Shown: positions 5,052 to 34,513, counted from the first letter of the stretch. The stretch is 37,677 nt of DNA from a virus (IMGVR_UViG_2579778866_000003); one strand, 5' to 3'. Notes: generated from the letters alone by a model not told the origin. Numbers and translations are program-made.

Positions 5052-5118
5052 CCAACTAATGAAATTAATGGCGTAAACCCGCCGGGCATCCCTTTATCTA
5101 AATTCAGGAGAATTGATT

Positions 5119-5352: not shown

Positions 5353-5579
5353 TGGCTGATGCAATGGATCTCGTACAGCAGCGCGTTGAAGAAGAACGCC
5401 AGCGCCATATCCGTGCAGCCCGTGCCAAATCACCGGGCGTGTCACGCGTACTTTGCATTGAATGTGAAGCGCCAATTCCGCCAGCACGACGCCGCGCCAT
5501 TCCGGGAGTGCAGCTTTGCATTACCTGTCAGGAAATCGCAGAACTGAAAGGCAAACATTACAACGGAGGTGCTGTATGA
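5352..5579 (+). CDS. TraR/DksA-family C4 zinc-finger protein
   Basis: 75 aa with CIECEAPIP ... CITCQ (CxxC-N17-CxxC) pattern; AGGAG Shine-Dalgarno. Confidence 0.7.
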   Translation: MADAMDLVQQRVEEERQRHIRAARAKSPGVSRVLCIECEAPIPPARRRAIPGVQLCITCQEIAELKGKHYNGGAV

Positions 5580-10313: not shown

Positions 10314-11276
10314 ATGCCAGTATTAGACTTCAAAGAAATACCAGAGGCTCATAAAGCAACAGGGCTGCAAGACACATTTGAACTTTTTTCTCGCGACTTC
10401 TTAGCTTTTCTGGGATATAAAATTATATCTGACCCAGATAGAGGGGCTGACGGTGGGGTTGATATTATAGCCGAAGAAAAAAGGACTGGTGTCGGCGGGG
10501 AAACAATTATCCGTTGGTTGGTAAGCTGTAAGCATAAAGCTCATAGTGGAAATTCAGTTAATCCAGGAGATGATGCAAATATTACTGATCGAGTAATAGC
10601 GAATAACTGCCAAGGATTTATCGGGTTCTATTCAACTCTTGCTAGTGCAGGTCTGTCTGGAATACTTGACGGGTTGAAAGGACGAATTGAATTTCAGGTT
10701 TTCGATAAAGAGAAAATAGAGAGGGAACTTTTACACTCTTCCAGAGGATTGGAAATTGCCGAAAGGTACTTCCCAAAGTCGTTATCTGAGTGGAAAACAG
10801 AAAACCCCAAACCCGCAAGAATATTTTCCGATGAACCTAGCTTAAAATGCAAAGTTTGCAAGAAAGAGCTTCTGTCTCAAGACGACAAGGGAATTATCAC
10901 TATATGGCAAAGAATCCGCACCGACTACGAAAAAGAACCAGAGTATAATGAACATATTTTTTGGACGTGTCGAGGCAACTGCGACCAAGCACTCCGGCAG
11001 TATGTTAGAAAACAAACAAACAATGGCCTTATTGATGGCTGGGAAGATATAGCTGATGTAATGATGCCAACTGTGTTTATAAAATGGGTCATGACAATAA
11101 TGAATGAGTTAAGATCTGGGACCCTATATTCAGATGAGGCATTTGACGAACTCAAGACATTTTTGATCAATATTTACCCATTTGCATGTCGTCATCTCAC
11201 CGAAAAAGAAAAAGAAAGGGTTAAATCATTAATGATGATACCTTCGTATCTTGGCGGCATGAACTATGAAGGTTAA
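10314..11276 (+). CDS. Mrr-cat-like (PD-(D/E)xK) nuclease domain fused to a Cys-containing C-terminal domain of unknown function
   Basis: 320 aa; N-terminus FLAFLGYKIISDPDRGADGGVDIIAEEK ... RWLVSCKHK resembles the Mrr restriction-endonuclease catalytic domain; C-terminal half has CKVCKK and CRGNCD; AT-rich. Confidence 0.65.
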   Translation: MPVLDFKEIPEAHKATGLQDTFELFSRDFLAFLGYKIISDPDRGADGGVDIIAEEKRTGVGGETIIRWLVSCKHKAHSGNSVNPGDDANITDRVIANNCQGFIGFYSTLASAGLSGILDGLKGRIEFQVFDKEKIERELLHSSRGLEIAERYFPKSLSEWKTENPKPARIFSDEPSLKCKVCKKELLSQDDKGIITIWQRIRTDYEKEPEYNEHIFWTCRGNCDQALRQYVRKQTNNGLIDGWEDIADVMMPTVFIKWVMTIMNELRSGTLYSDEAFDELKTFLINIYPFACRHLTEKEKERVKSLMMIPSYLGGMNYEG

Positions 11277-11793: not shown

Positions 11794-11867
11794 AGAAGAT
11801 TATTATTGGTACACTGTCGGTGACTCTCTACGCAGATCTTACACATTAATTTCTAATGGGGCATGCT

Positions 11868-12668
11868 ATGATCTTTCTAAGTCATAATCACCGTGACAAA
11901 AGGTTTGTAAGTGTTATAGCGGAAAAACTAGCAGATGTTTATGGGCGTGATAACGTATTCTACGATTCTTGGTCTATCCAACCCGGAGAGGGTATTATTG
12001 ACAAGATGAATTTAGGAATGGAGAATGTATCGTTCTTTTTCTTTTTTGTCACAGAAAATAGTTTGGCAAGTAACATGGTAAAAATGGAATGGCAAAATGC
12101 TTTAATTAAGGCATCGTCCGGGAAGTGTAAATTTATACCAATACGTTGCCAGAATATATCCTTGCCTGCTCTGCTTACTCAAACGCTATATATTGATCTT
12201 TATTCGTATGGGATCGATGTGGCAATAAGACAAATTATAGATGTCATTAATCAACAAAATACGTATATTCCTAATCCTGAGAAGTATTCAAACCTCTCCT
12301 ATGATATTAAGGATGGTGATGGGGGTAAGATAGTGAAATTATCAGCAATGGATTTTTTAGAACCAATTGCTGATTTTATGATGATTATGGATAATACAAT
12401 TAAGCATGATGATGTTGTTGTTATGGTCAATGGAGAAAGCACATTCACTCAGGGGTTTATTGAAAATGCATCTTTAGAAAATGGTATGAAAGTAAGTGGT
12501 GCCACTGTTGGCCTAAATCGGGGGTTAACACCAACGATGCCAATGTATGTTTCTCTTAGGTTAAAGGATGGTTCACCTTTGAATATATTTGCGGTGCTAC
12601 ATCGAGTAAGTACCGAGCGTTATGCTCCTATACCACATAAAGCCGATGATGCCTTTAGAGTAAAATAA
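11868..12668 (+). CDS. TIR-domain protein with C-terminal domain of unknown function
   Basis: N-terminus IFLSHNHRDKRFVSVIAEKL ... VFYDSWSIQPGEGIIDKM ... FFFFFVTENSLASNMVKMEWQNAL fits the bacterial TIR pattern; alternative ATG at 11856; AT-rich; sits between cos and Q. Confidence 0.7.
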   Translation: MIFLSHNHRDKRFVSVIAEKLADVYGRDNVFYDSWSIQPGEGIIDKMNLGMENVSFFFFFVTENSLASNMVKMEWQNALIKASSGKCKFIPIRCQNISLPALLTQTLYIDLYSYGIDVAIRQIIDVINQQNTYIPNPEKYSNLSYDIKDGDGGKIVKLSAMDFLEPIADFMMIMDNTIKHDDVVVMVNGESTFTQGFIENASLENGMKVSGATVGLNRGLTPTMPMYVSLRLKDGSPLNIFAVLHRVSTERYAPIPHKADDAFRVK

Positions 12669-20621: not shown

Positions 20622-21015
20622 AGCGGTGCCTTATGTCCGCAATAACCCGGACAAACTGCATCTGTTTGTGGATAACGGTTCGCTGGTTGCCACGGGGGCC
20701 AGCTCTATGTCGTGGGAGTACCGTTACACCCTGAACGCGGTGATTGAGGATTTCAGCGGCGACCAGAATCTGCTGATGGCCCCGGTTTTGCTGTGGCTGA
20801 GGGATAACCAGCCCGATGCCATCAATAACCCGGCGTTACGGAAAAAACTATTCACCTTTGAGGTGGATATTCTGCGCAACGATGTCTGTGATATCAGCCT
20901 GAACCTGCAACTGACGGAGCGTGTGCTGGTCAGCACTGACGGTAGTGTGTCGAGCGTTGAAGCTATAGCGGAACCTGATGAACCTGAAGAAATGTGGACG
21001 GTGAAACGTGGCTGA
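20584..21015 (+). CDS. R: Tail completion protein (P2 gpR-like)
   Basis: GTG start after AGGAG (20572-20576); the track ORF starts earlier at a TTG. Confidence 0.7.
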   Translation: MNKPQSLRHALNKAVPYVRNNPDKLHLFVDNGSLVATGASSMSWEYRYTLNAVIEDFSGDQNLLMAPVLLWLRDNQPDAINNPALRKKLFTFEVDILRNDVCDISLNLQLTERVLVSTDGSVSSVEAIAEPDEPEEMWTVKRG

Positions 21016-21454
21016 ACTGCAGAAAGTGGACGACTGGCTGAGTGCCTTGCTGGCGAATCTGGAACCAGCCGCCAGAAGCCGCATGATGCGCCAGCTGGCG
21101 CAGGAACTGCGCCGGACACAGCAGCAGAACATCAGGATTCAACTCAATCCTGATGGCAGCAGCTATGAACCGAGGCGAGTAACAGCACGCAGTAAAAAAG
21201 GCCGTATCAAACGGCAGATGTTTACAAAACTTCGCACCACAAAATACCTGAAAACCGCCGCCAGCGAGGATTCTGCCAGCGTGCAGTTTGAAGGTAAGGT
21301 GCAGCGCATTGCCCGCGTTCACCATTATGGCCTGCGTGATCGCGTCAGCCGCAAAGGACCGGAGGTCCGTTACGCAGAGCGTCGCCTTCTGGGCGTAAAT
21401 GATGATGTTGAGGCAATGACCCGCGACATGATTCTGCAATGGTTGGCGGGGTGA
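21008..21454 (+). CDS. S: Tail completion protein (P2 gpS-like)
   Basis: 148 aa; GTG start overlapping the R stop. Confidence 0.7.
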   Translation: MAELQKVDDWLSALLANLEPAARSRMMRQLAQELRRTQQQNIRIQLNPDGSSYEPRRVTARSKKGRIKRQMFTKLRTTKYLKTAASEDSASVQFEGKVQRIARVHHYGLRDRVSRKGPEVRYAERRLLGVNDDVEAMTRDMILQWLAG

Positions 21455-21458
21455 TTTT

Positions 21459-21476
21459 TGTACCAGCACTGATACA
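21459..21476 (+). promoter_or_regulatory. Ogr-type late promoter element TGT-N12-ACA upstream of V
   Basis: TGTACCAGCACTGATACA in the S-V intergenic region. Confidence 0.4.
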
Positions 21477-21522
21477 AGTTGCAGCACTGCCGCCTTTCTT
21501 CCCCTGATGGCAACCTTTCCCT

Positions 21523-22101
21523 ATGAACGCACAATTAACCGAAATCATGCGCCTTATCACCAACCTGATCCGCACAGGTGTAGTCACCGAAGTGGACCGG
21601 GAAAACTGGCTTTGCCGGGTGAAAACAGGCGAGCTTGAAACCAACTGGATTAGCTGGCTGACGCTGCGTGCCGGGAATGCCCGGACATGGTGGCGACCAT
21701 CGGAAGGTGAGCAGGTGGTGCTGCTGAGTCTGGGCGGTAATCTGGAAACAGCTTTTGCGCTGCCCGCCATCTATTCGAATCAGTTCGCACCACCGTCGAC
21801 GTCGGCGGACGCCTGCGTGACAGAACATCCTGACGGTGGCTGGTTTGAATACGAACCCGCCACCGGGCGCTGGTATGTCAGGGGCATCAAATCCATGGTC
21901 ATTGAGGCTGTCGACAACATCACCATGAAAACCAGTGAGTTTGTACTGGAGGCTGACCGCACGCGCATTAACAGCGAAGTGGTGATCAATGGTGGCGTTA
22001 CCCAGGGCGGCGGAGCGATGAATTCTAACGGGATTGTGGTTGATGCGCATCAGCATACTGGCGTCCTGAAAGGCGGCGACACAACCGGAGGTCCGGTATG
22101 A
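21523..22101 (+). CDS. V: Baseplate spike/assembly protein (P2 gpV-like)
   Basis: 192 aa; position and size as P2 V. Confidence 0.8.
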   Translation: MNAQLTEIMRLITNLIRTGVVTEVDRENWLCRVKTGELETNWISWLTLRAGNARTWWRPSEGEQVVLLSLGGNLETAFALPAIYSNQFAPPSTSADACVTEHPDGGWFEYEPATGRWYVRGIKSMVIEAVDNITMKTSEFVLEADRTRINSEVVINGGVTQGGGAMNSNGIVVDAHQHTGVLKGGDTTGGPV

Positions 22102-22457
22102 CGCTTTATAGCGGGATGAACAATACCAGCGGCAAAGCCATTACTGATATTGACCATCTGCGCCAGTCGGTTCGGGACATTCTGCTGACACCGCAGGGTA
22201 GCCGTATTGCCCGTCGGGAATATGGTTCCCTGCTGTCGGCACTGATAGACCAGCCACAAAATCCGGCATTACGCCTGCAGGTCATGTCGGCAGTGTATGT
22301 GGCGCTGAGTCGCTGGGAGCCACGGCTGACGCTGGATTCCATCACCATTAACAGCAATTTTGACGGTTCAATGGTGGTGGAGCTGACCGGGCGGCGTAAT
22401 AACGGTGTGCCTGTTTCCCTTTCCGTATCAACAGGAGCAGAGAATGGCAGTGATTGA
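22098..22457 (+). CDS. W: Baseplate wedge protein (P2 gpW-like)
   Basis: 119 aa, overlapping start/stop with V and J. Confidence 0.8.
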   Translation: MTLYSGMNNTSGKAITDIDHLRQSVRDILLTPQGSRIARREYGSLLSALIDQPQNPALRLQVMSAVYVALSRWEPRLTLDSITINSNFDGSMVVELTGRRNNGVPVSLSVSTGAENGSD

Positions 22458-23352
22458 CCTTTCGCAGTTGCCTGCGCCGCAGATTGTGGATGTGCCGGAC
22501 TTTGAGACGCTGCTTGCCGAACGCAAGGCCGAATTTGTGGCGCTTCATCCGAAAGATGAGCAGGAAGCAGTGATCCGCACGCTGGAACTGGAATCTGAAC
22601 CCGTTACCAAATTGTTGCAGGAGAATGCTTACCGTGAGTTGCTTCTGCGCCAGCGCATTAACGAAGCCGCGCATGCTGTGATGGTGGCTTACGCGATGGG
22701 CGGCGATCTTGACCAGCTCGCTGCCAACTACAACGTGAAACGCCTGACGGTGACGCCTGCTGATAATGACGCTGTGCCACCCGTTGCGGCTGTGATGGAA
22801 AGCGATGAAGCGTTACGCCTGCGTGTGCCTGCGGCTTTTGAAGGGCTTTCGGTTGCGGGGCCAACCGCAGCTTATGAATTTCATGCCCGAAGCGCCGACG
22901 GTCGGGTGGCGGATGCCAGTGCAACCAGCCCGGCACCTGCAGAGGTGGTACTGACTGTCCTTAGCCGCGAAGGCGACGGAACAGCAGAAAAAGACCTGCT
23001 GGATGTGGTGGAGAACGCCCTGAACAGTGAGAACGTCCGCCCGGTGGCTGACCGTCTGACGGTTCGCAGCGCAGAAATCATACCGTACCGCGTGGAAGCC
23101 ACCATTTTTCTCTATCCGGGGCCGGAAGCAGAGCCGGTAATGGCAGCGGCAAAAGCCAGCCTGCAGAAGTACATCGCCAGTCAGACGCGGCTTGGTCGGG
23201 ATATTCGCCGTAGCGCCATCTTTGCCGCCCTGCATGTTGAGGGTGTGCAGCGTGTGGAGCTGGCTTCGCCGCTGGCGGATGTGGTTTTGGACAAAACGCA
23301 GGCGGCATCATGTACGGAGTGGAGCGTGACCAACGGGGGAACGGATGAATAG
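22444..23352 (+). CDS. J: Baseplate protein (P2 gpJ-like)
   Basis: Start at MAVIDLSQL (ATG 22444) after GGAG; 302 aa. Confidence 0.8.
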   Translation: MAVIDLSQLPAPQIVDVPDFETLLAERKAEFVALHPKDEQEAVIRTLELESEPVTKLLQENAYRELLLRQRINEAAHAVMVAYAMGGDLDQLAANYNVKRLTVTPADNDAVPPVAAVMESDEALRLRVPAAFEGLSVAGPTAAYEFHARSADGRVADASATSPAPAEVVLTVLSREGDGTAEKDLLDVVENALNSENVRPVADRLTVRSAEIIPYRVEATIFLYPGPEAEPVMAAAKASLQKYIASQTRLGRDIRRSAIFAALHVEGVQRVELASPLADVVLDKTQAASCTEWSVTNGGTDE

Positions 23353-23950
23353 TCTGCTGCCATCGGGGTCAACTTCACTGGAGCGCCGACTGGCGCAGAC
23401 CTGTAGCGGGATTTCTGATCTGCAGGTGCCGCTGCGTGACTTGTGGAATCCGGCTACCTGCCCGGTCAGCTTCCTGCCTTATCTCGCCTGGGCGTTCTCT
23501 GTGGATCGCTGGGACGAAGGCTGGACAGAAAGCGTCAAGCGCCAGGTGGTGAAGGATGCTTTTTATATTCATCAGCATAAAGGGACCACCAGTGCCGTGC
23601 GGCGGGTGGTGGAGCCGTTCGGCTTTCTAATCCGCATTATTGAGTGGTGGCAGACCGGAGAGGCACCGGGCACGTTTCGTCTGGATATCGGCGTGCAGGA
23701 CCAGGGCATCACTGAAGATACCTATCTGGAACTTGAGCGGCTGATAAGCGATGCCAAACCATGTAGCCGTCACATGATCGGCATGTCCATCAATCTGCAG
23801 ACCAGCGGTCCGCATTGGGTGGGGGCCGCCAGCTATCTTGGCGAAGAAATCACGATCTATCCGTATATCAACGAAACAATTATTTCTGGCGGCACCGCGC
23901 ATGAAGGCGGGGCGGTCCATGTTATTGACACAATGAGAGTGAATCCATGA
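23345..23950 (+). CDS. I: Baseplate protein (P2 gpI-like)
   Basis: 201 aa between J and the tail-fibre gene. Confidence 0.8.
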   Translation: MNSLLPSGSTSLERRLAQTCSGISDLQVPLRDLWNPATCPVSFLPYLAWAFSVDRWDEGWTESVKRQVVKDAFYIHQHKGTTSAVRRVVEPFGFLIRIIEWWQTGEAPGTFRLDIGVQDQGITEDTYLELERLISDAKPCSRHMIGMSINLQTSGPHWVGAASYLGEEITIYPYINETIISGGTAHEGGAVHVIDTMRVNP

Positions 23951-25368
23951 GCACAAAATTTTATACCCTGCTGACGGATATTGGCGCGGCGAAACTTGCC
24001 AGCGCCGCCGCGCTCGGTGTGCCGCTAAAAATTACCCATATGGCGGTCGGCGATGGCGGCGGAGTATTGCCAACGCCAGACTCAAAGCAGACTGCACTGG
24101 TAAATGAGAAACGCCGGGCTGCGCTGAATATGCTCTATATCGACCCGCAGAACAGCAGCCAGATTATTGCCGAACAGGTGATCCCTGAAAACGAGGGCGG
24201 TTGGTGGATACGTGAAGTGGGCTTGTTTGATGAGTCCGGGGCATTGATTGCCGTGGGCAACTGCCCGGAAAGCTATAAGCCGCAACTGGCTGAAGGTAGC
24301 GGGCGCACTCAGACCGTGCGCATGGTGCTGATTACCAGCAGCACGGACAATATCACCCTGAAAATCGACCCTGCCGTAGTGCTGGCAACCCGCAAGTATG
24401 TGGATGACAAGGCACTGGAGCTGAAGGTGTACGCGGATGATCAGATGGCAAAACATCTTGCCGCACCGGACCCGCATTCACAGTATGCACCCAAAGAAAG
24501 TCCGACGTTTACCGGGACACCCAAAGCGCCAACGCCAGCCGCAGGGAATAACACCACGCAGATTGCGACCACCGCGTTTGTTCAGGCGGCTCTGACGGCT
24601 CTTATTAATGGTGCGCCAGCCACGTTGGACACGCTGAAAGAAATAGCCGCAGCCATTAACAATGATCCGAAATTCAGTACCACCATTAACAATGCGCTGG
24701 CACTGAAAGCGCCGCTGTCGAGTCCGGCACTCACCGGAACGCCAACCGTACCTACTGCGGCACAGTCGGTCAACAATACACAGATTGCCACCACGGCATT
24801 TGTGAAATCGGCGATTGCGGCAATGGTGGGTTCTGCACCTGCGGCACTGGATACACTGAACGAACTGGCGGCAGCGCTGGGGAATGACCCGAACTTTGCC
24901 ACGACAATGCTTAATGCGCTGGCAGGTAAACAACCGCTGGACAATACGCTGACTAATTTGAGTGGAAAGGATGTAGCTGGTCTTCTCACATACCTTGGTT
25001 TGGGAGAAGCGGCAAAACGGGATGTGGGAACAGGGGAAAATCAGATACCGGATATGGCTTCTTTTGCCAGTGGTGATGGATGGATGAAATTACCCAACGG
25101 TAAAATCCTGCAATATGGTCGAGGTGCGGTTACGCCGACATTATCGACGCAAACAATGAGAATTACATTCAGCATCCCTTTTCCTAAAAAAGTGGACTGC
25201 GCCATGCTTACTCATTCTGGTGATGGTGGTGCACCTTTAGGTGCTGGACGGGGATTCGTGATGACCGCAGAAGGTCCAACATTAACCGGTTTTAATTCCG
25301 CTTACAGAACTGCATCAACCAGTTCCACAGTATCGATGAATTACAGTTGGTGGGCTGTTGGTGAGTAA
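23947..25368 (+). CDS. H: Tail fibre protein (P2 gpH-like); C-terminal part lies inside the invertible segment
   Basis: 473 aa; N-terminus MSTKFYTLLTDIGAAKLA ... MAVGDGGG typical of P2-type fibres; hix-like site inside the coding region at 24983-25008. Confidence 0.85.
   Translation: MSTKFYTLLTDIGAAKLASAAALGVPLKITHMAVGDGGGVLPTPDSKQTALVNEKRRAALNMLYIDPQNSSQIIAEQVIPENEGGWWIREVGLFDESGALIAVGNCPESYKPQLAEGSGRTQTVRMVLITSSTDNITLKIDPAVVLATRKYVDDKALELKVYADDQMAKHLAAPDPHSQYAPKESPTFTGTPKAPTPAAGNNTTQIATTAFVQAALTALINGAPATLDTLKEIAAAINNDPKFSTTINNALALKAPLSSPALTGTPTVPTAAQSVNNTQIATTAFVKSAIAAMVGSAPAALDTLNELAAALGNDPNFATTMLNALAGKQPLDNTLTNLSGKDVAGLLTYLGLGEAAKRDVGTGENQIPDMASFASGDGWMKLPNGKILQYGRGAVTPTLSTQTMRITFSIPFPKKVDCAMLTHSGDGGAPLGAGRGFVMTAEGPTLTGFNSAYRTASTSSTVSMNYSWWAVGE
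24983..25008. other. hix/gix-like recombination site (left) for the Hin/Gin-family invertase
   Basis: Reverse complement TTCTCCCAAACCAAGGTATGTGAGAA resembles hixL (as recalled) TTCTTGAAAACCAAGGTTTTTGATAA; inner half is identical to the right site. Confidence 0.5.
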
Positions 25369-25388
25369 TTTTATTAAGGGTGATTTAT

Positions 25389-25832
25389 ATGAACGAATAT
25401 GTTTATAGCGCAAGGCATAATGCTTTTTTCCCTGTGGATATGATTGATAAATATAAATCAGAGGGATGGGATTTATCAGATGCTAAAGAGGTGAATCAAA
25501 ATATTATCAGTGAATTTATGGCTGAACCGCCACAAGGAAAAATCCGTATTGCCGGAGGTGATGGGCAGCCCGCGTGGGCAGATATTCCTCCACCCACGCA
25601 TGAAGAACTTATTGAAATTACTGAATCAGAAAGACAGCTACTAATTAACCAGGCCAACGAATACATGAACAGTAAGCAATGGCCCGGCAAAGCCGCTATT
25701 GGTCGTCTGAAAGGTGATGAACTGGCGCAATATAATTTGTGGCTGGATTATCTGGACGCACTGGAGCTGATCGATACTTCCGGTGCGCCAGATATTGAAT
25801 GGCCTACGCCTCCGGCAGTTCAGGCCAGATGA
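25389..25832 (+). CDS. G: Tail fibre assembly protein (P2 gpG-like)
   Basis: ATG at 25389 after AAGGG; C-terminus overlaps the convergent tfa' gene. Confidence 0.75.
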   Translation: MNEYVYSARHNAFFPVDMIDKYKSEGWDLSDAKEVNQNIISEFMAEPPQGKIRIAGGDGQPAWADIPPPTHEELIEITESERQLLINQANEYMNSKQWPGKAAIGRLKGDELAQYNLWLDYLDALELIDTSGAPDIEWPTPPAVQAR

Positions 25833-26406
25833 CATCCGGCGCGGTGCTGGTATCTGTTGCCGTCACCGCGTCAATGTAATCCAGCACAGCGTTAAGTCTG
25901 GTTGTTTCTGCCTGCGTCAGTTTATGTCCGGCCTGCAATTTCAGTTGAATCAGACTGATGGAAGCCATTGCTGCATCAATCAGTGACTGGCGCTGTGCTT
26001 CTGCCGCGTCTACTGCGGCACCGTGTTGTGCCTCAGTATCTGTCACCCATTTTTCACCATCCCATTTATCGTATGGCGTTAACGGGGCGATAGTGGTTGT
26101 TTCTTCGGGGTAATCACCCGGAGTTGTGATTTCTTTTGCGTCTCCCGTTTCGGTGTTATAGACGATTTCACCGCGATGGTCTGGCACATATTCCCATGAG
26201 TTTAAATCCATCGAACGGCAGATAGCATAACCCGCCTTATGTGTGCCAGGGGCATCTAAACAGGAATATGCAGGGATACCGACGCCAACAGCAAGATATT
26301 CATTTGAAGTGGAAATATATTCTCGAGTTTCACCATCATAGTTATAGACGGTAATATTCCCTGCTTTGGTGGCGATAATCTCGCTATTTAATATGGCGTT
26401 ATCCAT
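25804..26406 (-). CDS. Alternative tail fibre assembly protein (tfa')
   Basis: 200 aa on the minus strand inside the invertible segment; ATG overlaps the stop of the alternative fibre segment. Confidence 0.7.
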   Translation of the reverse strand: MDNAILNSEIIATKAGNITVYNYDGETREYISTSNEYLAVGVGIPAYSCLDAPGTHKAGYAICRSMDLNSWEYVPDHRGEIVYNTETGDAKEITTPGDYPEETTTIAPLTPYDKWDGEKWVTDTEAQHGAAVDAAEAQRQSLIDAAMASISLIQLKLQAGHKLTQAETTRLNAVLDYIDAVTATDTSTAPDVIWPELPEA

Positions 26407-26939
26407 TATGCAGCCCTCACAATATAGTTAAATGCAATATTCCTTGGTCGAACCCTAAAACCAGCCCCTGCGCCTGCTCCAGTTGGTGGCAATTCGATAG
26501 AGGGGTATGCTGTTGCAGAGGAATATAAACCTTCACGGGAATCATAATCAGTCGTCATATAGTTAGACGTATTATCAGAAACAGTTTCTGTCGGTCTGGT
26601 AACCAGACGATAAGAGCCAGTGGTTGGTGACCTGACCAGACCAAAACTTTCAACCAGAGTGGCTTTTTGAAAGCTTAATAATCCCCGACCACTGTCAGCT
26701 CCACGCCCGTCATCCCAGCCACGAATAAACTCACCACGTAAATCAGGCAATTTATTTGTCGGATAAGCCTTTGCCAGTTCCGGGTATTCTTCAGCAGAAA
26801 AAGCTGCACCGTTGCATTTCAGCCAGCCTGTCGGCGGAATGGCTGAAGGCCATGGAACAGGTACACCAACAGGTAATGCCGAACCTTCTCCCAAACCAAC
26901 GTTTAAGAAAATGCAGCGATTACGGCTAACTGGCATCAT
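26406..26939 (-). CDS. Alternative tail-fibre C-terminal variable segment (Sv'-like), promoterless in this orientation
   Basis: Contains DLRGEFIRGWDDGRG-type fibre-tip motif; its 5' end reads through the right hix-like site with the same GLGE junction residues as H. Confidence 0.6.
   Translation of the reverse strand: MMPVSRNRCIFLNVGLGEGSALPVGVPVPWPSAIPPTGWLKCNGAAFSAEEYPELAKAYPTNKLPDLRGEFIRGWDDGRGADSGRGLLSFQKATLVESFGLVRSPTTGSYRLVTRPTETVSDNTSNYMTTDYDSREGLYSSATAYPSIELPPTGAGAGAGFRVRPRNIAFNYIVRAA
26886..26911. other. hix/gix-like recombination site (right)
   Basis: TTCTCCCAAACCAACGTTTAAGAAAA; first 13 nt identical to the reverse complement of the left site. Confidence 0.5.
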
Positions 26940-26960
26940 CCCCTATTTTTATTCAGGGAG

Positions 26961-27533
26961 ATGATCATGCTTATTGGCTATGTACGCGTGTCAACAAATG
27001 ACCAGAACACCGATTTGCAACGTAATGCGCTGAACTGCGCGGGATGTGAGCGGATTTTTGAGGACAAAATCAGTGGCACTAAGTCCGACAGACCGGGGCT
27101 TAAAAAACTGCTCAGGACACTATTGGCAGGAGACACGCTGGTTGTCTGGAAGCTGGACAGGTTGGGGCGCAGTATGCGGCATCTTGTTACGCTGATAGAA
27201 GAGTTGCGCCAGCGTGGTGTGAATTTCCGAAGCCTGACTGACAGTATTGATACCAGTACCCCAATGGGCCGTTTCTTTTTTCATGTCATGGGTGCCCTGG
27301 CTGAAATGGAACGCGAACTGATAGTTGAACGTACCCGGGCAGGGCTGGCTGCAGCTCGTGCTAAAGGCAGAGTAGGTGGACGCCGTCCTAAGTTGACCAC
27401 TGAACAGTGGGCACAGATTGGACGTTTACTCGAGGCCGGAGAATCAAGACAGCGTATTGCACTGATTTTTGATGTAGGCGTTTCTACCATTTATCGAAAA
27501 TTTCCGGCAAATAAGAGCAATAAATCTCCCTGA
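26961..27533 (+). CDS. Serine DNA invertase (Hin/Gin/Cin/Pin family)
   Basis: 190 aa; MLIGYVRVSTNDQNTDLQRNAL ... VVWKLDRLGRS ... GRFFFHVMGALAEMERELIVERT closely matches Hin/Gin; C-terminal HTH. Confidence 0.9.
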   Translation: MIMLIGYVRVSTNDQNTDLQRNALNCAGCERIFEDKISGTKSDRPGLKKLLRTLLAGDTLVVWKLDRLGRSMRHLVTLIEELRQRGVNFRSLTDSIDTSTPMGRFFFHVMGALAEMERELIVERTRAGLAAARAKGRVGGRRPKLTTEQWAQIGRLLEAGESRQRIALIFDVGVSTIYRKFPANKSNKSP

Positions 27534-27581
27534 ATCAGCTTTATTTTGATTATCCCTGAAAGCAGACAAATACCGTCATTT

Positions 27582-27599
27582 TGTGTGAATAACGGTACA
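27582..27599 (+). promoter_or_regulatory. Ogr-type late promoter element TGT-N12-ACA upstream of FI
   Basis: TGTGTGAATAACGGTACA about 80 bp upstream of the FI start; shares CGGTACA with the P/O site. Confidence 0.45.
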
Positions 27600-27675
27600 A
27601 CTGCGCTTAGCTGTTTGTCAGGCACAATCACTTCAACATAGGGCGAAGCCTAATCCAATCAGGAGGTTCGCCACT

Positions 27676-28848
27676 ATGGCTCAGGATTACCACCACGGGG
27701 TGCGCGTTGTTGAAGTCAACGAAGGCACCCGATCCATTACCACGGTGAGCACCGCCATCGTGGGTATGGTCTGCACGGGCGATGATGCCGATGCAAAAAT
27801 GTTTCCTCTTAATAAACCCGTGCTGATCACTGATGTGCTGACTGCCAGCGGTAAAGCGGGTGAGTCCGGCACGCTGGCCCGTTCGCTGGATGCCATCGCT
27901 GACCAGGCAAAACCCGTGACCGTTGTTGTGCGTGTGCCGCAGGGTGAAACGGAAGAAGAAACCACGACCAATATCATCGGCGCAGTGACTGCTGAAGGTA
28001 AAAAAACAGGCATGAAAGCTCTGTTATCTGCTCAGTCACAGCTCGGCGTTAAACCGCGCATTCTGGGTGTACCAGGTCACGACACCAAGGCGGTAGCTAC
28101 TGAGTTGCTGAGTGTGGCGCAAAGCCTGCGTGGGTTTGCTTACCTGTCAGCGTATGGCTGCAAGACTGTGCAGGAGGCAATCACTTACCGTGAAAACTTC
28201 AGCCAGCGCGAAGGGATGCTGATCTGGCCCGACTTTACTGGCTGGGACACGGTGCTGAATGCCGAAGCAACGGCATATGCCACCGCCCGTGCGCTTGGTC
28301 TGCGTGCCAAAATTGATGAGCAGACCGGGTGGCACAAAAGCCTGTCCAACGTGGGCGTGAACGGTGTCACCGGAATTTCTGCTGATGTGTTCTGGGATCT
28401 GCAGGACCCGGCAACCGATGCGGGACTGCTTAACCAGAACGACGTCACCACGCTTGTGCGCAAGGATGGTTTCCGCTTCTGGGGTTCCCGCTGTCTGAGC
28501 GATGATCCGCTTTTTGCCTTCGAAAACTACACCCGCACAGCGCAGGTACTGATGGACACAATGGCAGAAGCACATATGTGGGCGGTGGACAAACCGCTGA
28601 ACCCGTCGCTGGCCCGCGACATTATCGAAGGTATCCGCGCCAAAATGCGCAACCTGGTCAGTCAGGGCTATCTCATTGGTGGTGATTGCTGGCTGGATGA
28701 GTCGGTGAACGACAAAGACACGCTGAAAGCCGGAAAACTCACCATCGACTATGACTACACGCCAGTGCCGCCACTTGAAAATCTGATGCTGCGCCAGCGC
28801 ATCACCGATCAGTACCTGGTGAATTTCGCCAGCCAGGTCAGCGCGTAA
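27676..28848 (+). CDS. FI: Tail sheath protein (P2 gpFI-like)
   Basis: 390 aa; AGGAGG Shine-Dalgarno. Confidence 0.9.
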
Positions 28849-28857
28849 GGGGACAAC

Positions 28858-29373
28858 ATGGCTTTACCACGCAAATTAAAACATCTGAACTTGTTTAACG
28901 ACGGGAACAACTGGCAGGGGATCGTTGAGTCGCTGACGCTGCCGAAATTCACCCGCAAATATGAGAAGTATCGCGGCGGCGGTATGCCGGGGGCGGTGGA
29001 TGTGGATTTGGGACTGGATGACAGTGCACTGGATACAGAATTTTCCATTGGTGGTACTGAGCTGCTGCTGTTTAAGCAGATGGGCAAAGCCACGGTGGAT
29101 GGTATCCAGTTGCGCTTTACCGGCTCTATCCAGCGTGATGATACCGGAGAAGTGCAGGCCGTGGAGCTTGTGGTGCGTGGGCGTCACAAAGAAGTGGATT
29201 CCGGCGAGTGGAAGACGGGCGAAAGCAACACCACCAAAGTGACCAGTACCAACAGCTACGCGAAGCTGACCATCAATGGTGAGGTGCTCTATGAAGTGGA
29301 CCTTATCAACATGGTGGAAATTGTGGACGGTGTGGACCTGATGGAAGCGCACCGCAACGCCCTCGGCCTCTGA
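28858..29373 (+). CDS. FII: Tail tube protein (P2 gpFII-like)
   Basis: 171 aa following the sheath gene. Confidence 0.9.
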   Translation: MALPRKLKHLNLFNDGNNWQGIVESLTLPKFTRKYEKYRGGGMPGAVDVDLGLDDSALDTEFSIGGTELLLFKQMGKATVDGIQLRFTGSIQRDDTGEVQAVELVVRGRHKEVDSGEWKTGESNTTKVTSTNSYAKLTINGEVLYEVDLINMVEIVDGVDLMEAHRNALGL

Positions 29374-29427
29374 TGTATCTGAACGGCGCGGAATGCCGCG
29401 CCAGAACCTAATTTACAGGACAACAAA

Positions 29428-29730
29428 ATGAGCGATAAACAGACTGAAAAGACCATTCAACTGGATACCCCCATCATGCGCGGTAAAACAGAAATTACCG
29501 AAATTGTGCTGCGTAAACCGCAGTCCGGTGCGCTGCGCGGTACACGCCTGCAGGCCATTATGGATATGGATGTAAACGCGATGATGACCGTGATCCCCCG
29601 CATCTCCAGTCCGGCACTGACTGCGCAGGAAATTGCAGAGATGGACCCGGCAGATCTCACTGCCATGTCGGTTGAGGTTGTCACTTTTTTGTTGAAGAAG
29701 TCGGTGCTTGCCGGTTTACCGACAGCCTGA
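29428..29730 (+). CDS. E: Tail assembly chaperone (P2 gpE-like)
   Basis: 100 aa; contains the T6G slippery site near its 3' end. Confidence 0.75.
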   Translation: MSDKQTEKTIQLDTPIMRGKTEITEIVLRKPQSGALRGTRLQAIMDMDVNAMMTVIPRISSPALTAQEIAEMDPADLTAMSVEVVTFLLKKSVLAGLPTA

Positions 29731-29864
29731 CGGTTGACGATCTGGTGGCTGATATCGCCACCATCTTTCACTGGCCGCCATCCGTTACTGACGTTATGCC
29801 GCTGACCGAAGTGCTGGAATGGCGGTATAAAGCGATTCAGAGAAGCGGGGCCAACGATGAGTGA
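29428..29864 (+). CDS. E+E' product via programmed -1 frameshift at TTTTTTG (29685-29691)
   Basis: From 29691 the -1 frame is open to the TGA at 29862-29864, extending about 58 codons past the slip site and overlapping the T start; same arrangement as P2 E/E'. Confidence 0.55.
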
Positions 29865-32800
29865 TAATAACCTGCGCCTGCAGGTCATTCTTAATGCGGT
29901 TGACAAACTCACCCGCCCATTCCGTGCTGCACAGGCCAGTTCGAAAGAGCTGGCTGGCGCAATCAGAAACTCCCGTGACGCATTAAAGCAACTCAATCAG
30001 GCGGGTAACAGCCTGGAAAAATTTCGCAAGCTGCAGGCCGATAACAAAAAGTTAGGCGACAGGCTGAACTATGCCAGACAGAAGGCAAATTTGCTTAGTT
30101 CTGAGCTGGAAGCGATGGAACAACCATCACAACGGCACCTTGTGGCTTTAGGTCGGCAAACGCTGGCAGTCCAACGCCTGGAAGAACAACAAAAATATTT
30201 GCAGAAGCAAACGGCGCTTGTGCGTGCAGAACTGTACCGGGCGGGAATTTCTGCGAAAGATGATGCGGGAGCAACTGCCCGTTTAGCCCGTGAAACATCA
30301 CGTTATAACCAGGAACTGTCGAAACAGGAGGCGCGGCTGAAGCGACTGGGGGAAGCTCAGCGCAGGATGAATGCAGCGCGTGCCAGTTATGCCCGTTCGC
30401 TGGAGGTGCGCGATCGCATCGCAGGAACCGGAGCCACCACCACGGCGGCAGGGCTGGCAATGGGGACGCCAGTGATGGCGGCAGTAAAAAGCTATACCAG
30501 CATGGAAGATGCCATGAAAGGTGTGGCAAAGCAGGTCAATGGTCTGCGTGACGATAATGGCAACCGCACTGCACGTTTTTATGAAATGCAGGATGCCATC
30601 AAAGCTGCCAGCGAACAGTTGCCGATGGAAAACGGTGCGGTGGACTTCGCTGCACTGGTTGAAGGTGGTGCGCGTATGAACGTTGCAAACCCTGACGACA
30701 GCTGGGAGGACCAGAAACGTGACCTGCTGGCCTTCGCCAGTACGGCGGCAAAGGCGGCAACAGCCTTTGAGCTGCCAGCGGATGAACTGTCAGAAAGTCT
30801 GGGGAAAATCGCCCAGCTCTACAAAATCCCTACCCGCAATATTGAACAGCTCGGTGATGCGCTGAACTATCTGGATGATAACGCCATGTCGAAAGGGGCA
30901 GACATCATTGATGTCATGCAACGCCTGGGCGGTGTGGCTGATCGTCTGGATTATCGTAAAGCGGCGGCGCTGGGTTCCACCTTCCTGACACTGGGCGCTG
31001 CGCCAGAGGTTGCAGCCAGTGCAGCAAACGCGATGGTGCGTGAATTGTCCATTGCCACCATGCAGAGCAAGAGTTTCTTTGAAGGGATGAATCTGCTGAA
31101 ACTCAATCCTGAAGTGATTGAAAAGCAGATGACGAAGGATGCGATGGGAACCATCCAGCGCGTGCTGGAGAAGGTGAACGCGCTGCCGCAGGATAAGCGC
31201 CTGTCTGCCATGACCATGTTGTTTGGTAAAGAGTTTGGCGATGACGCGGCGAAACTGGCAAACAACCTGCCGGAACTGCAGCGCCAGCTAAAACTGACAG
31301 CGGGCAATGATGCGCTCGGTTCCATGCAGAAAGAATCCGACATCAACAAAGACTCACTTTCTGCTCAGTGGTTGCTGGTCAAAACCGGAGCGCAGAACAC
31401 CTTCAGCAGCCTGGGCGAAACGCTGCGCCAGCCGCTGATGGATATTCTGTTCACGGTGAAAAGCGTCACGGGGGCGTTGCGTCGCTGGGTGGAAGCTAAC
31501 CCGGAACTGACGGGCACACTGATGAAAGCGGCGGCTGTTGTGGCTGCGGTTACCGTGGGCCTCGGCACCTTAGCGGTGGTGTTAGCTGCAGTGCTGGGGC
31601 CGCTGGCAGTGATCCGTCTGGGGTTCTCTGTGCTGGGTATCAAAACGTTACCTTCCGTTACGGCAGCAGTAACTCGAACCAGCAGCGCGTTGTCCTGGCT
31701 GGCTGGCGCACCACTGGCACTGCTGCGACGCGGGCTTGCTTCATCGGGCCACGCTGCGGGTTTACTTACTGCGCCGTTGTCGTCTTTGCGCCGCACGGCA
31801 TCACTGACGGGAAATGTCCTGAAAACTGTAGCAGGTGCGCCGGTTGCACTTTTGCGGTCTGGATTATCCGGTTTACGTGCTGTTGCTGTGATGTTTATGA
31901 ATCCTCTGGCGGTACTGCGTGGTGGACTGGCCGCCGCAGGCACGGTGCTGCGAGTACTGGCATCTGGTCCACTGGCGATGCTGCGCGTTGCCCTGTATGC
32001 CGTATCTGGTCTGTTAGGTGCTCTGCTCAGTCCGATAGGTCTTGTGGTTACTGCACTGGCGGGCGTGGCGCTGGTTGTCTGGAAATACTGGCAACCCATC
32101 ACCGCATTTCTTGGTGGCGTGGTGGAAGGATTCAAAGCGGCGGCAGGTCCCGTCAGTGCAGCATTCGAACCGCTTAAGCCCGTGTTCCAGTGGATTGGCG
32201 ACAAAGTACAGGCGCTGTGGGGCTGGTTTACTGATCTGCTGACGCCCGTTAAGTCAACCTCTGCCGAACTGCAGAGTGCAGCGGCAATGGGGCGGCGATT
32301 CGGGGAGGCACTGGCGGAAGGGCTGAATATGGTCATGCATCCGCTGGACTCCCTGAAATCCGGCGTTTCCTGGTTGCTGGAGAAACTCGGCGTTGTCAGT
32401 AAAGAGGCCGCAAAGGCGAAACTACCGGAAAGTGTGACGCGTCAGCAACCTGCGACGGTGAATACAAACGGTAAAGTGATGATGCCATCGGGTGGTTTTC
32501 CGTCATGGGGATATGGCATTGCGGGGATGTATGACAGCGGCGGCTATATCCCGCGCGGGCAGTTTGGCATCGTCGGTGAAAACGGGCCGGAAATTGTTAA
32601 CGGCCCGGCAAATGTGACCAGCCGGAGAAATACAGCTGCACTGGCTGCCGTTGTTGCCGGAATGATGGGCGTTGCTGCCGCGCCTGCAGAGCTTCCACCG
32701 TTGCATCCTTTGGCACTTCCCGCGAAAGGCGGCGAAGCGATGGTGAGTCGTGCAGCCACTGTGCCGCCCGTTTACAGGATTGAGGCACCGACGCAGATCA

Positions 32801-32934
32801 TCATTCAGATGCAGCCAGGACAAAGTGCGCAGGATATTGCGCGGGAGGTGGCACGCCAGCTTGATGAACGTGAACGCAGGCTGAAGGCAAAAGCCAGGAG
32901 TAACTACAGCGATCAGGGGGGATACGACGCATGA
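29857..32934 (+). CDS. T: Tail tape measure protein (P2 gpT-like)
   Basis: 1025 aa; coiled-coil N-terminal half, hydrophobic central repeats, position before U and D. Confidence 0.9.
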   Translation: MSDNNLRLQVILNAVDKLTRPFRAAQASSKELAGAIRNSRDALKQLNQAGNSLEKFRKLQADNKKLGDRLNYARQKANLLSSELEAMEQPSQRHLVALGRQTLAVQRLEEQQKYLQKQTALVRAELYRAGISAKDDAGATARLARETSRYNQELSKQEARLKRLGEAQRRMNAARASYARSLEVRDRIAGTGATTTAAGLAMGTPVMAAVKSYTSMEDAMKGVAKQVNGLRDDNGNRTARFYEMQDAIKAASEQLPMENGAVDFAALVEGGARMNVANPDDSWEDQKRDLLAFASTAAKAATAFELPADELSESLGKIAQLYKIPTRNIEQLGDALNYLDDNAMSKGADIIDVMQRLGGVADRLDYRKAAALGSTFLTLGAAPEVAASAANAMVRELSIATMQSKSFFEGMNLLKLNPEVIEKQMTKDAMGTIQRVLEKVNALPQDKRLSAMTMLFGKEFGDDAAKLANNLPELQRQLKLTAGNDALGSMQKESDINKDSLSAQWLLVKTGAQNTFSSLGETLRQPLMDILFTVKSVTGALRRWVEANPELTGTLMKAAAVVAAVTVGLGTLAVVLAAVLGPLAVIRLGFSVLGIKTLPSVTAAVTRTSSALSWLAGAPLALLRRGLASSGHAAGLLTAPLSSLRRTASLTGNVLKTVAGAPVALLRSGLSGLRAVAVMFMNPLAVLRGGLAAAGTVLRVLASGPLAMLRVALYAVSGLLGALLSPIGLVVTALAGVALVVWKYWQPITAFLGGVVEGFKAAAGPVSAAFEPLKPVFQWIGDKVQALWGWFTDLLTPVKSTSAELQSAAAMGRRFGEALAEGLNMVMHPLDSLKSGVSWLLEKLGVVSKEAAKAKLPESVTRQQPATVNTNGKVMMPSGGFPSWGYGIAGMYDSGGYIPRGQFGIVGENGPEIVNGPANVTSRRNTAALAAVVAGMMGVAAAPAELPPLHPLALPAKGGEAMVSRAATVPPVYRIEAPTQIIIQMQPGQSAQDIAREVARQLDERERRLKAKARSNYSDQGGYDA
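31700..32030 (+). repeat. Degenerate tandem repeats of about 63 bp (21 aa) inside the tape measure gene
   Basis: About five consecutive units of the type AGAPLALLRRGLASSGHAAGLL / TAPLSSLRRTASLTGNVLKTV / AGAPVALLRSGLSGLRAVAVMF. Confidence 0.5.
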
Positions 32935-33416
32935 TGATGGTGCTGGGATTGTACGTGTTTATGCTGCGCACCGTTCCGTATCAGGAACTGCAGTATCAAC
33001 GCAGTTGGCGACATGCGGCAAACAGCCGGGTAAACCGTCGTCCGTCCACGCAGTTTCTGGGACCGGACAACGACATGCTGACGCTTTCTGGTGTTCTTAT
33101 GCCGGAGATAACGGGCGGCAGGCTGTCGTTGCTGGCTCTGGAGCAGATGGCAGAACAGGGAAAAGCATGGCCCCTGATTGAAGGCAGCGGCACGATTTAC
33201 GGCATGTATGTGATTGAGGGACTGAATCTGACTAAAACGGAGTTTTTCCGCGACGGTATGCCGCGGCGGATTGAGTTCACCCTGTCGCTCAAACGGGTGG
33301 ATGAATCCCTGTCCGATATGTTCGGTGATCTCAGTACGCAACTGAATAATCTGCAGGACACGGCAACATCTGCCTTAAGTGATATCAGTAAAACGGTGGG
33401 AGGGCTGCTGTCGTGA
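32931..33416 (+). CDS. U: Tail protein (P2 gpU-like)
   Basis: 161 aa; overlapping start/stop with T and D. Confidence 0.8.
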   Translation: MMMVLGLYVFMLRTVPYQELQYQRSWRHAANSRVNRRPSTQFLGPDNDMLTLSGVLMPEITGGRLSLLALEQMAEQGKAWPLIEGSGTIYGMYVIEGLNLTKTEFFRDGMPRRIEFTLSLKRVDESLSDMFGDLSTQLNNLQDTATSALSDISKTVGGLLS

Positions 33417-34513
33417 ATTTCAGCTCTGAACTGCTTAACAAAGGCAACAAAACTCCCGCATTCAGCATCAGTATTGAGGGCAGGGATATCACCACTGTGC
33501 TGGATAACCGCCTGATGAGGCTGACGCTGACGGATAACCGGGGCTTTGAAGCGGACCAGCTTGATCTGGAGCTGGACGACGCCGATGGAAAAATAGCGCT
33601 GCCGCGCCGTGGTGCGGTCATTACGCTGGCGCTGGGCTGGAAGGGGCAGCCGCTTTTCCCGAAAGGGGCATTCACGGTGGACGAGATTGAACACACTGGC
33701 GCACCGGACCGCCTGACTATCCGGGCGCGAAGTGCTGATTTTCGTGAAACGCTGAATACCCGCCGTGAAAAGTCGTGGCACAAGACCACTGTCGGGGAAG
33801 TGGTCAAGGAAATAGCCGCGCGTCACAAGCTGAAGATGGCACTGGGTAATGACCTGTCGGATAAGCCCGTGGAACATATAGACCAGACTAATGAGAGTGA
33901 CGGCAGTTTTCTGATGCGGCTGGCGCGCCAGTACGGTGCTATCGCGTCAGTGAAAAATGGCAATCTGTTATTCATCCGACAGGGACAGGGTAAAAGTGCC
34001 AGCGGTAAACCACTGCCGGTGATCACTATCACACGTAAGGACGGCGACAGTCACCGCTTTACCCTGGCAGATCGCGGAGCTTACACGGGCGTAATTGCCA
34101 GCTGGTTGCATACTCGCGAACCCTCGAAGAAAGAAAGCACCACGGTGAAGCGTAAGCGCAGGACTAAGAAGCAGAAGAAAGAGCCGGAAGCGAAGCAGGG
34201 CGATTACCTGGTGGGTACGGATGAAAACGTGCTGGTACTTAATCGCACTTATGCCAACCGGAGCAACGCCGAACGAGCGGCGAAAATGCAGTGGGAACGC
34301 CTGCAACGCGGCGTTGCGTCATTCTCGCTACAACTGGCGGAAGGTCGGGCAGATCTCTACACGGAAATGCCAGTGAAAGTCAGTGGCTTTAAACAGCCGA
34401 TAGATGATGCGGAATGGACCATTACGACTCTGACGCATACCGTCAGCCCGGATAACGGTTTTACGACCAGTCTGGAGCTTGAAGTGAGGATTGATGATTT
34501 CGAAATGGAATGA
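33413..34513 (+). CDS. D: Tail protein / late control protein D (P2 gpD-like)
   Basis: 366 aa; last tail gene before ogr. Confidence 0.8.
   Translation: MNFSSELLNKGNKTPAFSISIEGRDITTVLDNRLMRLTLTDNRGFEADQLDLELDDADGKIALPRRGAVITLALGWKGQPLFPKGAFTVDEIEHTGAPDRLTIRARSADFRETLNTRREKSWHKTTVGEVVKEIAARHKLKMALGNDLSDKPVEHIDQTNESDGSFLMRLARQYGAIASVKNGNLLFIRQGQGKSASGKPLPVITITRKDGDSHRFTLADRGAYTGVIASWLHTREPSKKESTTVKRKRRTKKQKKEPEAKQGDYLVGTDENVLVLNRTYANRSNAERAAKMQWERLQRGVASFSLQLAEGRADLYTEMPVKVSGFKQPIDDAEWTITTLTHTVSPDNGFTTSLELEVRIDDFEME

Follow-up and report, generated by a model that had tools for sequence, protein, structure and literature searches.

The tail-fibre gene H of an apparently complete P2-like (Peduoviridae) prophage, which adjoins ybjL in E. 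coli, very probably carries a site-specific inversion switch of the Pin/Gin type. Both orientations of the same prophage occur naturally, with their breakpoints in the recombination sites. The whole stretch of 37,677 nucleotides that was analysed is referred to as the window, and the features that make up the switch are listed in Table 1.

In the proposed mechanism, dimers of the invertase would occupy both 26-bp sites, which would then be paired, probably via an enhancer that is bound by Fis and lies within the 5′ end of the invertase gene, and all four strands would be cleaved at the central TT/AA dinucleotide. The late V-operon transcript would cover the 350 constant codons of H and then one of two cassettes, continuing into either (i) C-terminus A and tfa; or (ii) after inversion, C-terminus B and tfa′, with the cassette in the wrong direction left out of the transcript. 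A lysogen population would shed virions with two kinds of fibre tip, whose receptors are presumably different.

Organization of the invertible segment

Table 1. Coordinates of the inversion switch and its fibre genes in the window
Feature	Position	Strand	Evidence or remarks
H, whole ORF as found	23947-25368	+	Phage_tail_fib N-terminal domain and Gp53-like_C; 473 aa
H constant N-terminal part, up to the crossover core	23947..24996	+	Pfam Phage_tail_fib, E 6.5e-65
Left site, hix/gix/pix type	24983-25008	+	Inside H; TTCTCACATACC TT GGTTTGGGAGAA; core TT 24995-24996
Invertible segment, 1905 bp core to core	24995..26899		Alignment of OZ038883.1 on the opposite strand
Variable C-terminus A of H, 123 aa, Gp53-like_C	24997..25368	+	PF21882, E 6.6e-12
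tfa, assembly chaperone paired with C-terminus A, 147 aa	25389..25832	+	Caudo_TAP, E 3.7e-30
tfa′, assembly chaperone paired with C-terminus B, 200 aa	25804..26406	-	Caudo_TAP, E 5.6e-32
Variable C-terminus B, 163 aa, Collar	26406..26897	-	Pfam Collar, E 2.2e-15
Right site, hix/gix/pix type	26886-26911	+	TTCTCCCAAACC AA CGTTTAAGAAAA; core AA 26898-26899
Serine DNA invertase, Pin/Gin/Hin family, 188 aa, outside the segment	26967..27533	+	Pfam Resolvase (E 1.1e-52) and HTH_7 (E 1.4e-15)
Candidate Fis-dependent recombinational enhancer, 5′ end of the invertase gene	26988..27075		Approximate extent; inferred

The initial annotation had described the enclosed 1.9 kb as holding a fibre C-terminus and a tfa gene on each strand, and the ORF and Pfam domain calls agree with this convergent arrangement. 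The 3′ ends of tfa and tfa′ overlap by 29 nt, and their proteins share 34% identity over 85 aa. The G+C content of the segment is 46.8%, versus 55-56% in the flanking constant part of H and the sheath gene. In the window orientation C-terminus A is expressed, and C-terminus B is silent until inversion joins it to H. The open frame of C-terminus B extends beyond the segment to an ATG at 26939. Both C-termini fuse at the GLGE codons, and the proposal that these form their common junction was borne out by flipping the segment in silico, which stays in frame and gives an H′ product of 513 aa, compared with 473 aa in the window orientation. The two tips fall into separate Pfam families (Gp53-like_C and Collar) and are therefore likely to recognize different receptors, so that the two states may differ in host range.

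The + strand core dinucleotides are TT at the left site and AA at the right site, and the sites are therefore inverted. Direct comparison with Mu gix and the e14 site shows two 26-bp sites of 12-2-12 architecture, imperfectly palindromic and inverted, whose non-palindromic cores match. A degenerate hix-type pattern (three mismatches or fewer) matched only these two places in 37.7 kb, with 0.00 matches expected from 100 shuffles. A half-site consensus scan gave 17/18 at each of them, and the maxima of 200 shuffled sequences were 12-15. Both searches fall on the coordinates at which two inverted 26-bp hix-like sites had been claimed. The inner half GGTTTGGGAGAA, which had been described as common to the two sites, has exact copies in the window at these sites only. 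They are also contained in an inverted repeat (24983-25009 and 26885-26911) of 27 nt with arms that are 81% complementary and 1875 nt apart. In 11 related loci the left site is unchanged (26/26), and relatives carry both 26-bp sites intact and without differences. No third recombination site of the shufflon type appeared in the scan of the window, where the next best position scored 13/18, within the shuffle range.

The adjacent invertase and its candidate enhancer

The invertase gene starts 55 bp past the right site, and its product is 86% identical to e14 PinE and 75% identical to Mu Gin (E 1.6e-92 to the Mu Gin structure 3UJ3), in line with the proposal of a Hin/Gin-type serine invertase directly outside the segment. 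The catalytic Ser9 lies within the motif VRVSTNDQ and is aligned with Gin. The Fis-contact residues are kept as K46, K47, R50, Q150, R153 and L154, which correspond to Hin numbering minus 1. This offset comes from an alignment to the Hin DNA-binding domain 1HCR, the chain of which we take to start at Hin residue 139. The residues of Hin that touch Fis and the enhancer (K47, R48, K51, Q151, R154 and L155) are reported to be uniquely conserved in invertases (PMC3798978). By its size (188 aa, where the family spans about 185-195 aa), domains, Ser9, sites and Fis-contact residues, the protein fits the Din family of Fis-dependent serine invertases (Hin/Gin/Cin/Pin). An identical protein is present in 1182 indexed blocks of the assembly collection.

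This invertase may well catalyse inversion between the two sites, to which the occurrence of both orientations with breakpoints in the sites points indirectly. Alternatively, the segment could be inverted in trans by another Pin of the host (PinQ, PinR, PinE or the invertase of another prophage), with the adjacent gene dispensable. Din-family invertases cross-complement, and in e14 the P segment, whose crossover repeat is as in the window, is inverted by the Qin-prophage enzyme PinQ (PMC12529663). Other trans-acting Pin-type invertases are frequent in E. coli; the region has matches in 3040 of 5426 complete E. coli genomes, and the median genome has two matching places. Nevertheless, the invertase gene is highly conserved and lies about 55 bp from the right site in 37/37 distinct versions, which argues that it encodes the cognate enzyme; moreover, inversion in trans would supplement the main explanation rather than replace it. 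A dispensable adjacent gene is improbable, and inversion is probably catalysed by the adjacent invertase and not by some other Pin that the cell contains.

Fis sites were searched for with the rule G-N13-C with an AT-rich centre. A Fis-like 15-mer, GTGTCAACAAATGAC, has its centre 97 bp away from the right-site core, and the same element lies 96 bp from gixR in Mu. In Salmonella, the enhancer to which Fis binds occupies the 5′ end of the hin gene, at about 99 bp from the closest site (native Hin enhancer spacing, 99 bp). The G-N13-C search of the window gave no convincing candidate for a second Fis site and no pair spaced near 48 bp. Among 21 non-redundant genes, the synonymous divergence of the invertase is lowest in codons 1-15 (0.14-0.19 versus 0.37 overall), which is suggestive but not specific, for this 5′ dip could reflect a constraint on translation initiation instead of an enhancer. 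Inversion would probably depend on Fis.

A conserved minus-strand ATG beyond the segment

The minus-strand ORF that begins at ATG 26939 and crosses the right site allows a reading in which the switch would chiefly serve the lysogen rather than the phage, the ORF giving rise to a free tip fragment that toggles with orientation and blocks the receptors of other phages, as has been reported for StfE2 of e14. An in-frame ATG-ATG leader (MMP...IF[LI]NVGLGE) is present in 37/37 distinct intergenic versions, an ATG-CCA start is found in Mu and e14 too, and the equivalent e14 chimera, StfE2, reportedly inhibits T2 adsorption (Kirigo et al.). However, the leader has only about 10 codons and overlaps the region upstream of the invertase, whose conservation could itself explain the ATG, and no promoter-like site was seen on the minus strand in a simple scan. 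The consensus scan returned nothing for the silent cassette either, but it says little here, since late promoters of P2 depart from the sigma-70 consensus. In addition, the prophage looks complete, and the classical role in virion host range suffices. A benefit of this kind is unlikely, and it is likewise unlikely that the ORF with its conserved ATG-ATG is translated in the lysogen into an orientation-dependent tip fragment that would mask outer-membrane receptors. If this were true, the switch of an intact P2-like prophage would also act as a phase-variable device for superinfection exclusion.

Both orientations in public genomes

Near-identical prophages (99.95-100%) are public in both orientations, so that the single orientation which would have spoken against a switch is not what the genomes hold. 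CP165282.1 has the orientation of the window at 99.96% identity over 12.6 kb. OZ038883.1 has flanks that are 100% and 99.975% identical and a segment that is inverted at 99.95% identity, aligning to 24995-26902 of the window on the opposite strand with one mismatch in 1.9 kb. Its flanks are collinear up to 25009 and from 26885, which places the breakpoints within 24995-25009 and 26885-26902, i.e., inside the common half-sites. The constant part of H is collinear and 99.975% identical in both accessions regardless of the orientation of the segment, and the annotated intact 513-aa fibre of OZ038883.1 differs from the predicted H′ by 1 residue. The same flip distinguishes GPEC1366 from GPEC1040, two chicken E. 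coli isolates with flanks that are 99.97-100% identical. At a coverage of at least 80%, the orientation of the window is matched by 34 complete E. coli genomes and the flipped construct by 50; each state is thus carried by dozens of complete genomes, with intact fibre genes. Among 80 IMG/VR loci with this invertase, 36 have pieces of the segment exclusively on the + strand and 28 exclusively on the - strand. No record of the 'phages' collection covers at least 80% of the region.

These data bear on whether the switch is a fossil, that is, a set of inherited parts that no longer flips, with the orientations in the databases representing old fixed states. The orientation data do come from assembled genomes rather than from one culture of a strain, and a simple consensus scan gave no promoter for the invertase, although such a scan is uninformative for weak invertase promoters, which deviate from the sigma-70 consensus. 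Nevertheless, the backgrounds that carry the two orientations share 99.95-100% identity over 12.6 kb and the segments differ by one mismatch, so the flip must be very recent; the GPEC1366/GPEC1040 pair likewise appears recently flipped. The invertase ORF, Ser9 and both 26-bp sites are intact and the same among relatives, which makes a fossil switch very unlikely. Short inverted repeats can confuse assemblers, yet an origin of the inversions in chance or RecA-dependent repeats, through homologous recombination or assembly artefacts, is negligible in probability, because the identical stretch, at 15 bp, falls well below the length that RecA needs to recombine efficiently, the sites follow the 12-2-12 hix/gix architecture at 17/18 positions, and each state recurs in dozens of complete genomes with intact fibre genes.

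Implications for annotation and practical work

Switches of this kind are well known and very common, with an established mechanism, family and occurrence in P2-like prophages, and this one opens no new biological question; its value lies in annotation and practical work. In pipeline annotations, the silent cassette turns up as short independent genes named 'phage tail protein', or else the fibre gene is marked as partial or frameshifted, and recognizing the switch leads to a correct annotation of one fibre gene with two isoforms. Both fibre tips need to be considered in host-range prediction, lysogen typing and phage engineering, and the orientation seen in an assembly records a momentary state, not a property of the strain.

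Comparison with related inversion systems

The P segment of e14 has the same order, namely the constant part of the fibre, [C-terminus and tfa / tfa′ and C-terminus′] and the invertase (stfP-tfaP / tfaE-stfE-pinE). At the protein level, tfa′ is 90% identical to TfaE, tfa is 53% identical to TfaP and C-terminus B is 59% identical to StfE, and the right site matches the site adjoining pinE at 25/26 positions. The 16-nt crossover repeat of e14 is an experimentally verified inversion site (PMC12529663); positions 26884-26899 of the window match CCTTCTCCCAAACCAA at 16/16 and positions 24995-25009 match TTGGTTTGGGAGAAGG at 15/16. On the other hand, e14 is lambdoid and defective, and its fibre gene is truncated, whereas the window holds an apparently complete P2-type myovirus with a P2-type N-terminus of H. 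C-terminus A is Gp53-like and has no detectable similarity to StfP, and the segment is 1905 bp long here and 1797 bp in e14.

The layout had been compared to the G segment of Mu, and the order Sc-[Sv U / U′ S′v]-gin was indeed matched, with both orientations found. The architecture is the same, and the 26-bp sites are of the form TTnTCnnAAACC-NN-GGTTTnnGAnAA in both. The invertase is 75% identical to Gin, and the Fis-like element lies at nearly the same distance from the site. The gin gene is 67 bp from the right site in Mu, compared with 55 bp for the invertase here. In Mu, however, the segment is about 3 kb long, the core dinucleotide is TC and the phage is transposable and not P2-like. Sequence comparison detected no similarity of the tips and chaperones in the window to S, S′, U and U′ of Mu.

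The P2-like fibre loci of EPEC E2348/69 belong to the same family and occupy the same position, between fibre and sheath genes, with an invertase homologous to Hin. Goldberg et al. 2014 (PMC4272514) demonstrated inversion of P2-like prophage fibre segments in EPEC cultures and quantified the orientations that coexist there. Going by the published descriptions, one EPEC locus has three repeats and four variants, against two sites in the window. Tail and baseplate genes of the window are of the P2 type, and the Pfam families of the P2 proteins R, S, V, W, J, I, H, FI, FII, E, T, U and D were called on near-identical loci. In the stretch of NC_001895 read from the V-operon terminator to D, fun(Z) lies between that terminator and the F operon, with neither an invertase nor a second fibre cassette between the V and F operons, which fits the earlier statement that the switch is absent from canonical P2. 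A DNA invertase is often found in the Z/fun hotspot of P2 (bioRxiv 10.1101/2024.10.15.618418). The module is common in P2-like prophages, and its absence from P2 itself does not make it unusual.

Salmonella Hin/hix shares with the window the recombinase family, the 26-bp site type and the AA/TT core. It differs in that Hin is encoded inside its segment and flips a promoter, whereas here the invertase is encoded outside the segment and coding C-termini are exchanged.

Organization of the fibre inversion switch

The window represents a prophage of P2 type (Peduoviridae); past the end of tail gene D, its sequence matches E. coli ybjL-ybjM-grxA at 100% identity. The nearest phage records are Escherichia phage vB_EcoM-813R9, with 97.6% identity across 86% of the first 24.9 kb, and the Klebsiella phages KP12 and 4LV2017 (~96%). 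The initial annotation had proposed a Mu G-segment-like fibre inversion switch, an interpretation supported by the layout of the region and by the presence of both orientations in public genomes; a change of host range would be the expected outcome. The two opposed cassettes that it described, each a fibre C-terminus with a tail-fibre assembly chaperone gene (tfa or tfa'), were recovered from the ORFs, Pfam domains and an in-silico flip. Both C-termini (tip A in the window orientation, tip B silent) start at GLGE codons that lie in the shared inner half-site, and in-silico inversion of 24995-26899 produces an unbroken 513-aa fibre, H'. The convergent tfa and tfa' share 29 nt of 3'-terminal sequence (25804-25832), so that one stretch encodes the C-termini of both chaperones on opposite strands; annotations of E. 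coli relatives and of e14 (tfaP/tfaE) show this overlap too. The G+C content of the segment (25009-26885) is 46.8%, versus 55.3% for the constant part of H and 56.2% for the sheath gene, which would fit horizontal exchange of the cassettes as modules.

Features of the prophage and its inversion module
Feature	Coordinates	Strand	Size	Pfam domains
Integrase	1-1053	-		
Protein between integrase and repressor	1136-2812	-	558 aa	T5orf172, MUG113, DUF4041
Hotspot protein	10314-11276	+	320 aa	Mrr_cat-like
Hotspot protein	11856-12668	+	270 aa	TIR_2
H (tail fibre)	23947-25368	+	473 aa	Phage_tail_fib N-terminal domain, Gp53-like_C
Left site	24983-25008		26 bp	
tfa	25389-25832	+	147 aa	Caudo_TAP
tfa'	25804-26406	-	200 aa	Caudo_TAP
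Tip B (alternative C-terminus)	26406 to right site	-	163 aa	Collar
Right site	26886-26911		26 bp	
Invertase	26967-27533	+	188 aa	Resolvase, HTH_7
Tail gene D	ends 34513			

Recombination sites, invertase and enhancer

The two inverted hix-like sites were confirmed by repeat search, pattern scan and consensus scoring. The top inverted repeat within 24000-28500 has 27-nt arms (24983-25009 and 26885-26911; 81% complementary) separated by 1875 nt, and in a common sense the left and right sites read TTCTCACATACC-TT-GGTTTGGGAGAA and TTTTCTTAAACG-TT-GGTTTGGGAGAA. A degenerate hix-type pattern (up to 3 mismatches) found only these two sites in the whole window and none in 100 shuffles. Against the half-site consensus (TTNTCNNAAACC, a 2-bp spacer and an inverted copy), both scored 17/18, while the runner-up position scored 13 and the maxima of 200 shuffles were 12-15, so the window contains exactly two sites. 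Both 26-bp sites are identical in every close relative compared, in either orientation. Mu gix reads TTATCCAAAACC-TC-GGTTTACAGGAA in the Mu record. The e14 site beside pinE differs from the right site of the window at 1 of 26 positions. The e14 repeats TTGGTTTGGGAGAAGG and CCTTCTCCCAAACCAA, the experimentally proven bounds of its inverting P segment (PMC12529663), match 15/16 at 24995-25009 and 16/16 at 26884-26899.

The gene just outside the segment encodes a Hin/Gin-family serine invertase, as first proposed, with 75% identity to Mu Gin (E 1.6e-92 to PDB 3UJ3) and 86% to e14 PinE, and its Ser9 aligns with the catalytic serine. The Fis/enhancer contacts of Hin reported as DNA-invertase-specific (K47, R48, K51, Q151, R154 and L155; McLean et al., PMC3798978) have the counterparts K46, K47, R50, Q150, R153 and L154. 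A recombinational enhancer is only partly supported: the centre of the Fis-like 15-mer GTGTCAACAAATGAC lies 97 bp away from the core of the right site, compared with 96 bp from gixR for the same element in Mu and a native spacing of 99 bp in Hin. Across 21 non-redundant invertase genes, codons 1-15 show a synonymous divergence of 0.14-0.19 versus 0.37 overall. No convincing second Fis site was found, so that Fis dependence would be expected from family membership.

Invertase dimers at the two sites would undergo synapsis, cleavage at the TT/AA core, rotation and religation, inverting a unit of 1905 bp. The late transcript V-W-J-I-H would read on into the cassette facing it, so that the virion would carry either tip A with Tfa or tip B with Tfa'. 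The tips likely recognise different receptors, judging from their different Pfam families and the 59% identity of tip B to e14 StfE.

The only less conventional reading of the switch is that a leader ORF on the minus strand, conserved and spanning the right site, has a role like that of StfE2, the e14 chimera, which we consider very improbable. The silent tip frame stays uninterrupted past the right site as far as an ATG-ATG start (MMPVSRNRCIFLNVGLGE...; ATG at 26937-26939). An in-frame ATG leader is present in 37/37 distinct versions of the intergenic region (window 26912-26966) among related loci, and e14 and Mu also have an ATG-CCA start. Alternatively, the 10-nt motif common to the window, e14 and Mu, ATGGCAT(C/G)AT, in which only the C/G position varies, could serve the invertase gene, on the plus strand, as an extended -10 element.

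Both orientations in public genomes

An essentially identical prophage is already present in public genomes. The assembly collection has the exact invertase protein in 1182 blocks, and CP165282.1 and OZ038883.1 are among nine listed places carrying it. CP165282.1 shows the window orientation and aligns to 20967-33533 with 99.96% identity. In OZ038883.1, the flanks match at 99.975% and 100% and 24995-26902 lies on the opposite strand (99.95%); the overlaps between these alignments (24995-25009 and 26885-26902) place the breakpoints in the shared half-site and core, and its 513-aa fibre differs from predicted H' by one residue. A 95%-related prophage is shared by two isolates from chicken, GPEC1366 and GPEC1040, with flanks 99.97-100% identical and the segment inverted (99.95%). 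Among complete E. coli genomes with at least 80% coverage, 34 matched the region as found and 50 the flipped construct, and in 80 IMG/VR loci with the invertase, homologous segment pieces were on the plus strand only in 36 and on the minus strand only in 28.

RefSeq gives H as partial or frameshifted in both GPEC genomes (L001 2446-2835, L002 2446-3992) and lists the silent cassette as short stand-alone genes named 'phage tail protein' or 'gp53-like'. Such misannotation is a consequence of the switch, to which assembly errors possibly add. Three hix-like sites, not two, are present in related IMG/VR loci L016, L036 and L046, which suggests multi-inversion variants comparable to the four-state P2-like EPEC locus. 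CP006830.1 and JBSJYO010000001.1 have a shorter module (loci L007 and L009, about 4820-5973) with an identical invertase, in which both alternative C-termini are Gp53-like_C and there is a single tail-fibre assembly gene; the strict site pattern located no right-hand site in them.

Relation to known systems and other cargo genes

Switches of this kind are already known, and the window fits the established picture throughout: the Mu G segment and e14 P segment share its layout, and by sequence comparison e14 Pin is the closest characterised system. The switch was rightly regarded as foreign to canonical P2, since the P2 reference genome lacks an invertase here and carries fun(Z) instead. Among P2-like prophages, however, the module is common. 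The P2 Z/fun hotspot has been noted to contain a DNA invertase, with neighbouring genes inverted (2024 preprint, bioRxiv 10.1101/2024.10.15.618418), and coexisting tail-fibre segment orientations were measured in two P2-like EPEC prophages (Goldberg et al. 2014, PMC4272514).

PADLOC assigns the 558-aa product of the gene lying between integrase and repressor to the PD-Lambda-1 family of anti-phage defence (E 3e-120). Two proteins, one with a nuclease domain and one with a TIR_2 domain (Pfam E 1.3e-22; PADLOC matches weak), are encoded in the variable hotspot that separates replication gene A from portal gene Q. As a pair they may form a defence cargo that is so far uncharacterised; in the related phage 813R9, another gene occupies this position.
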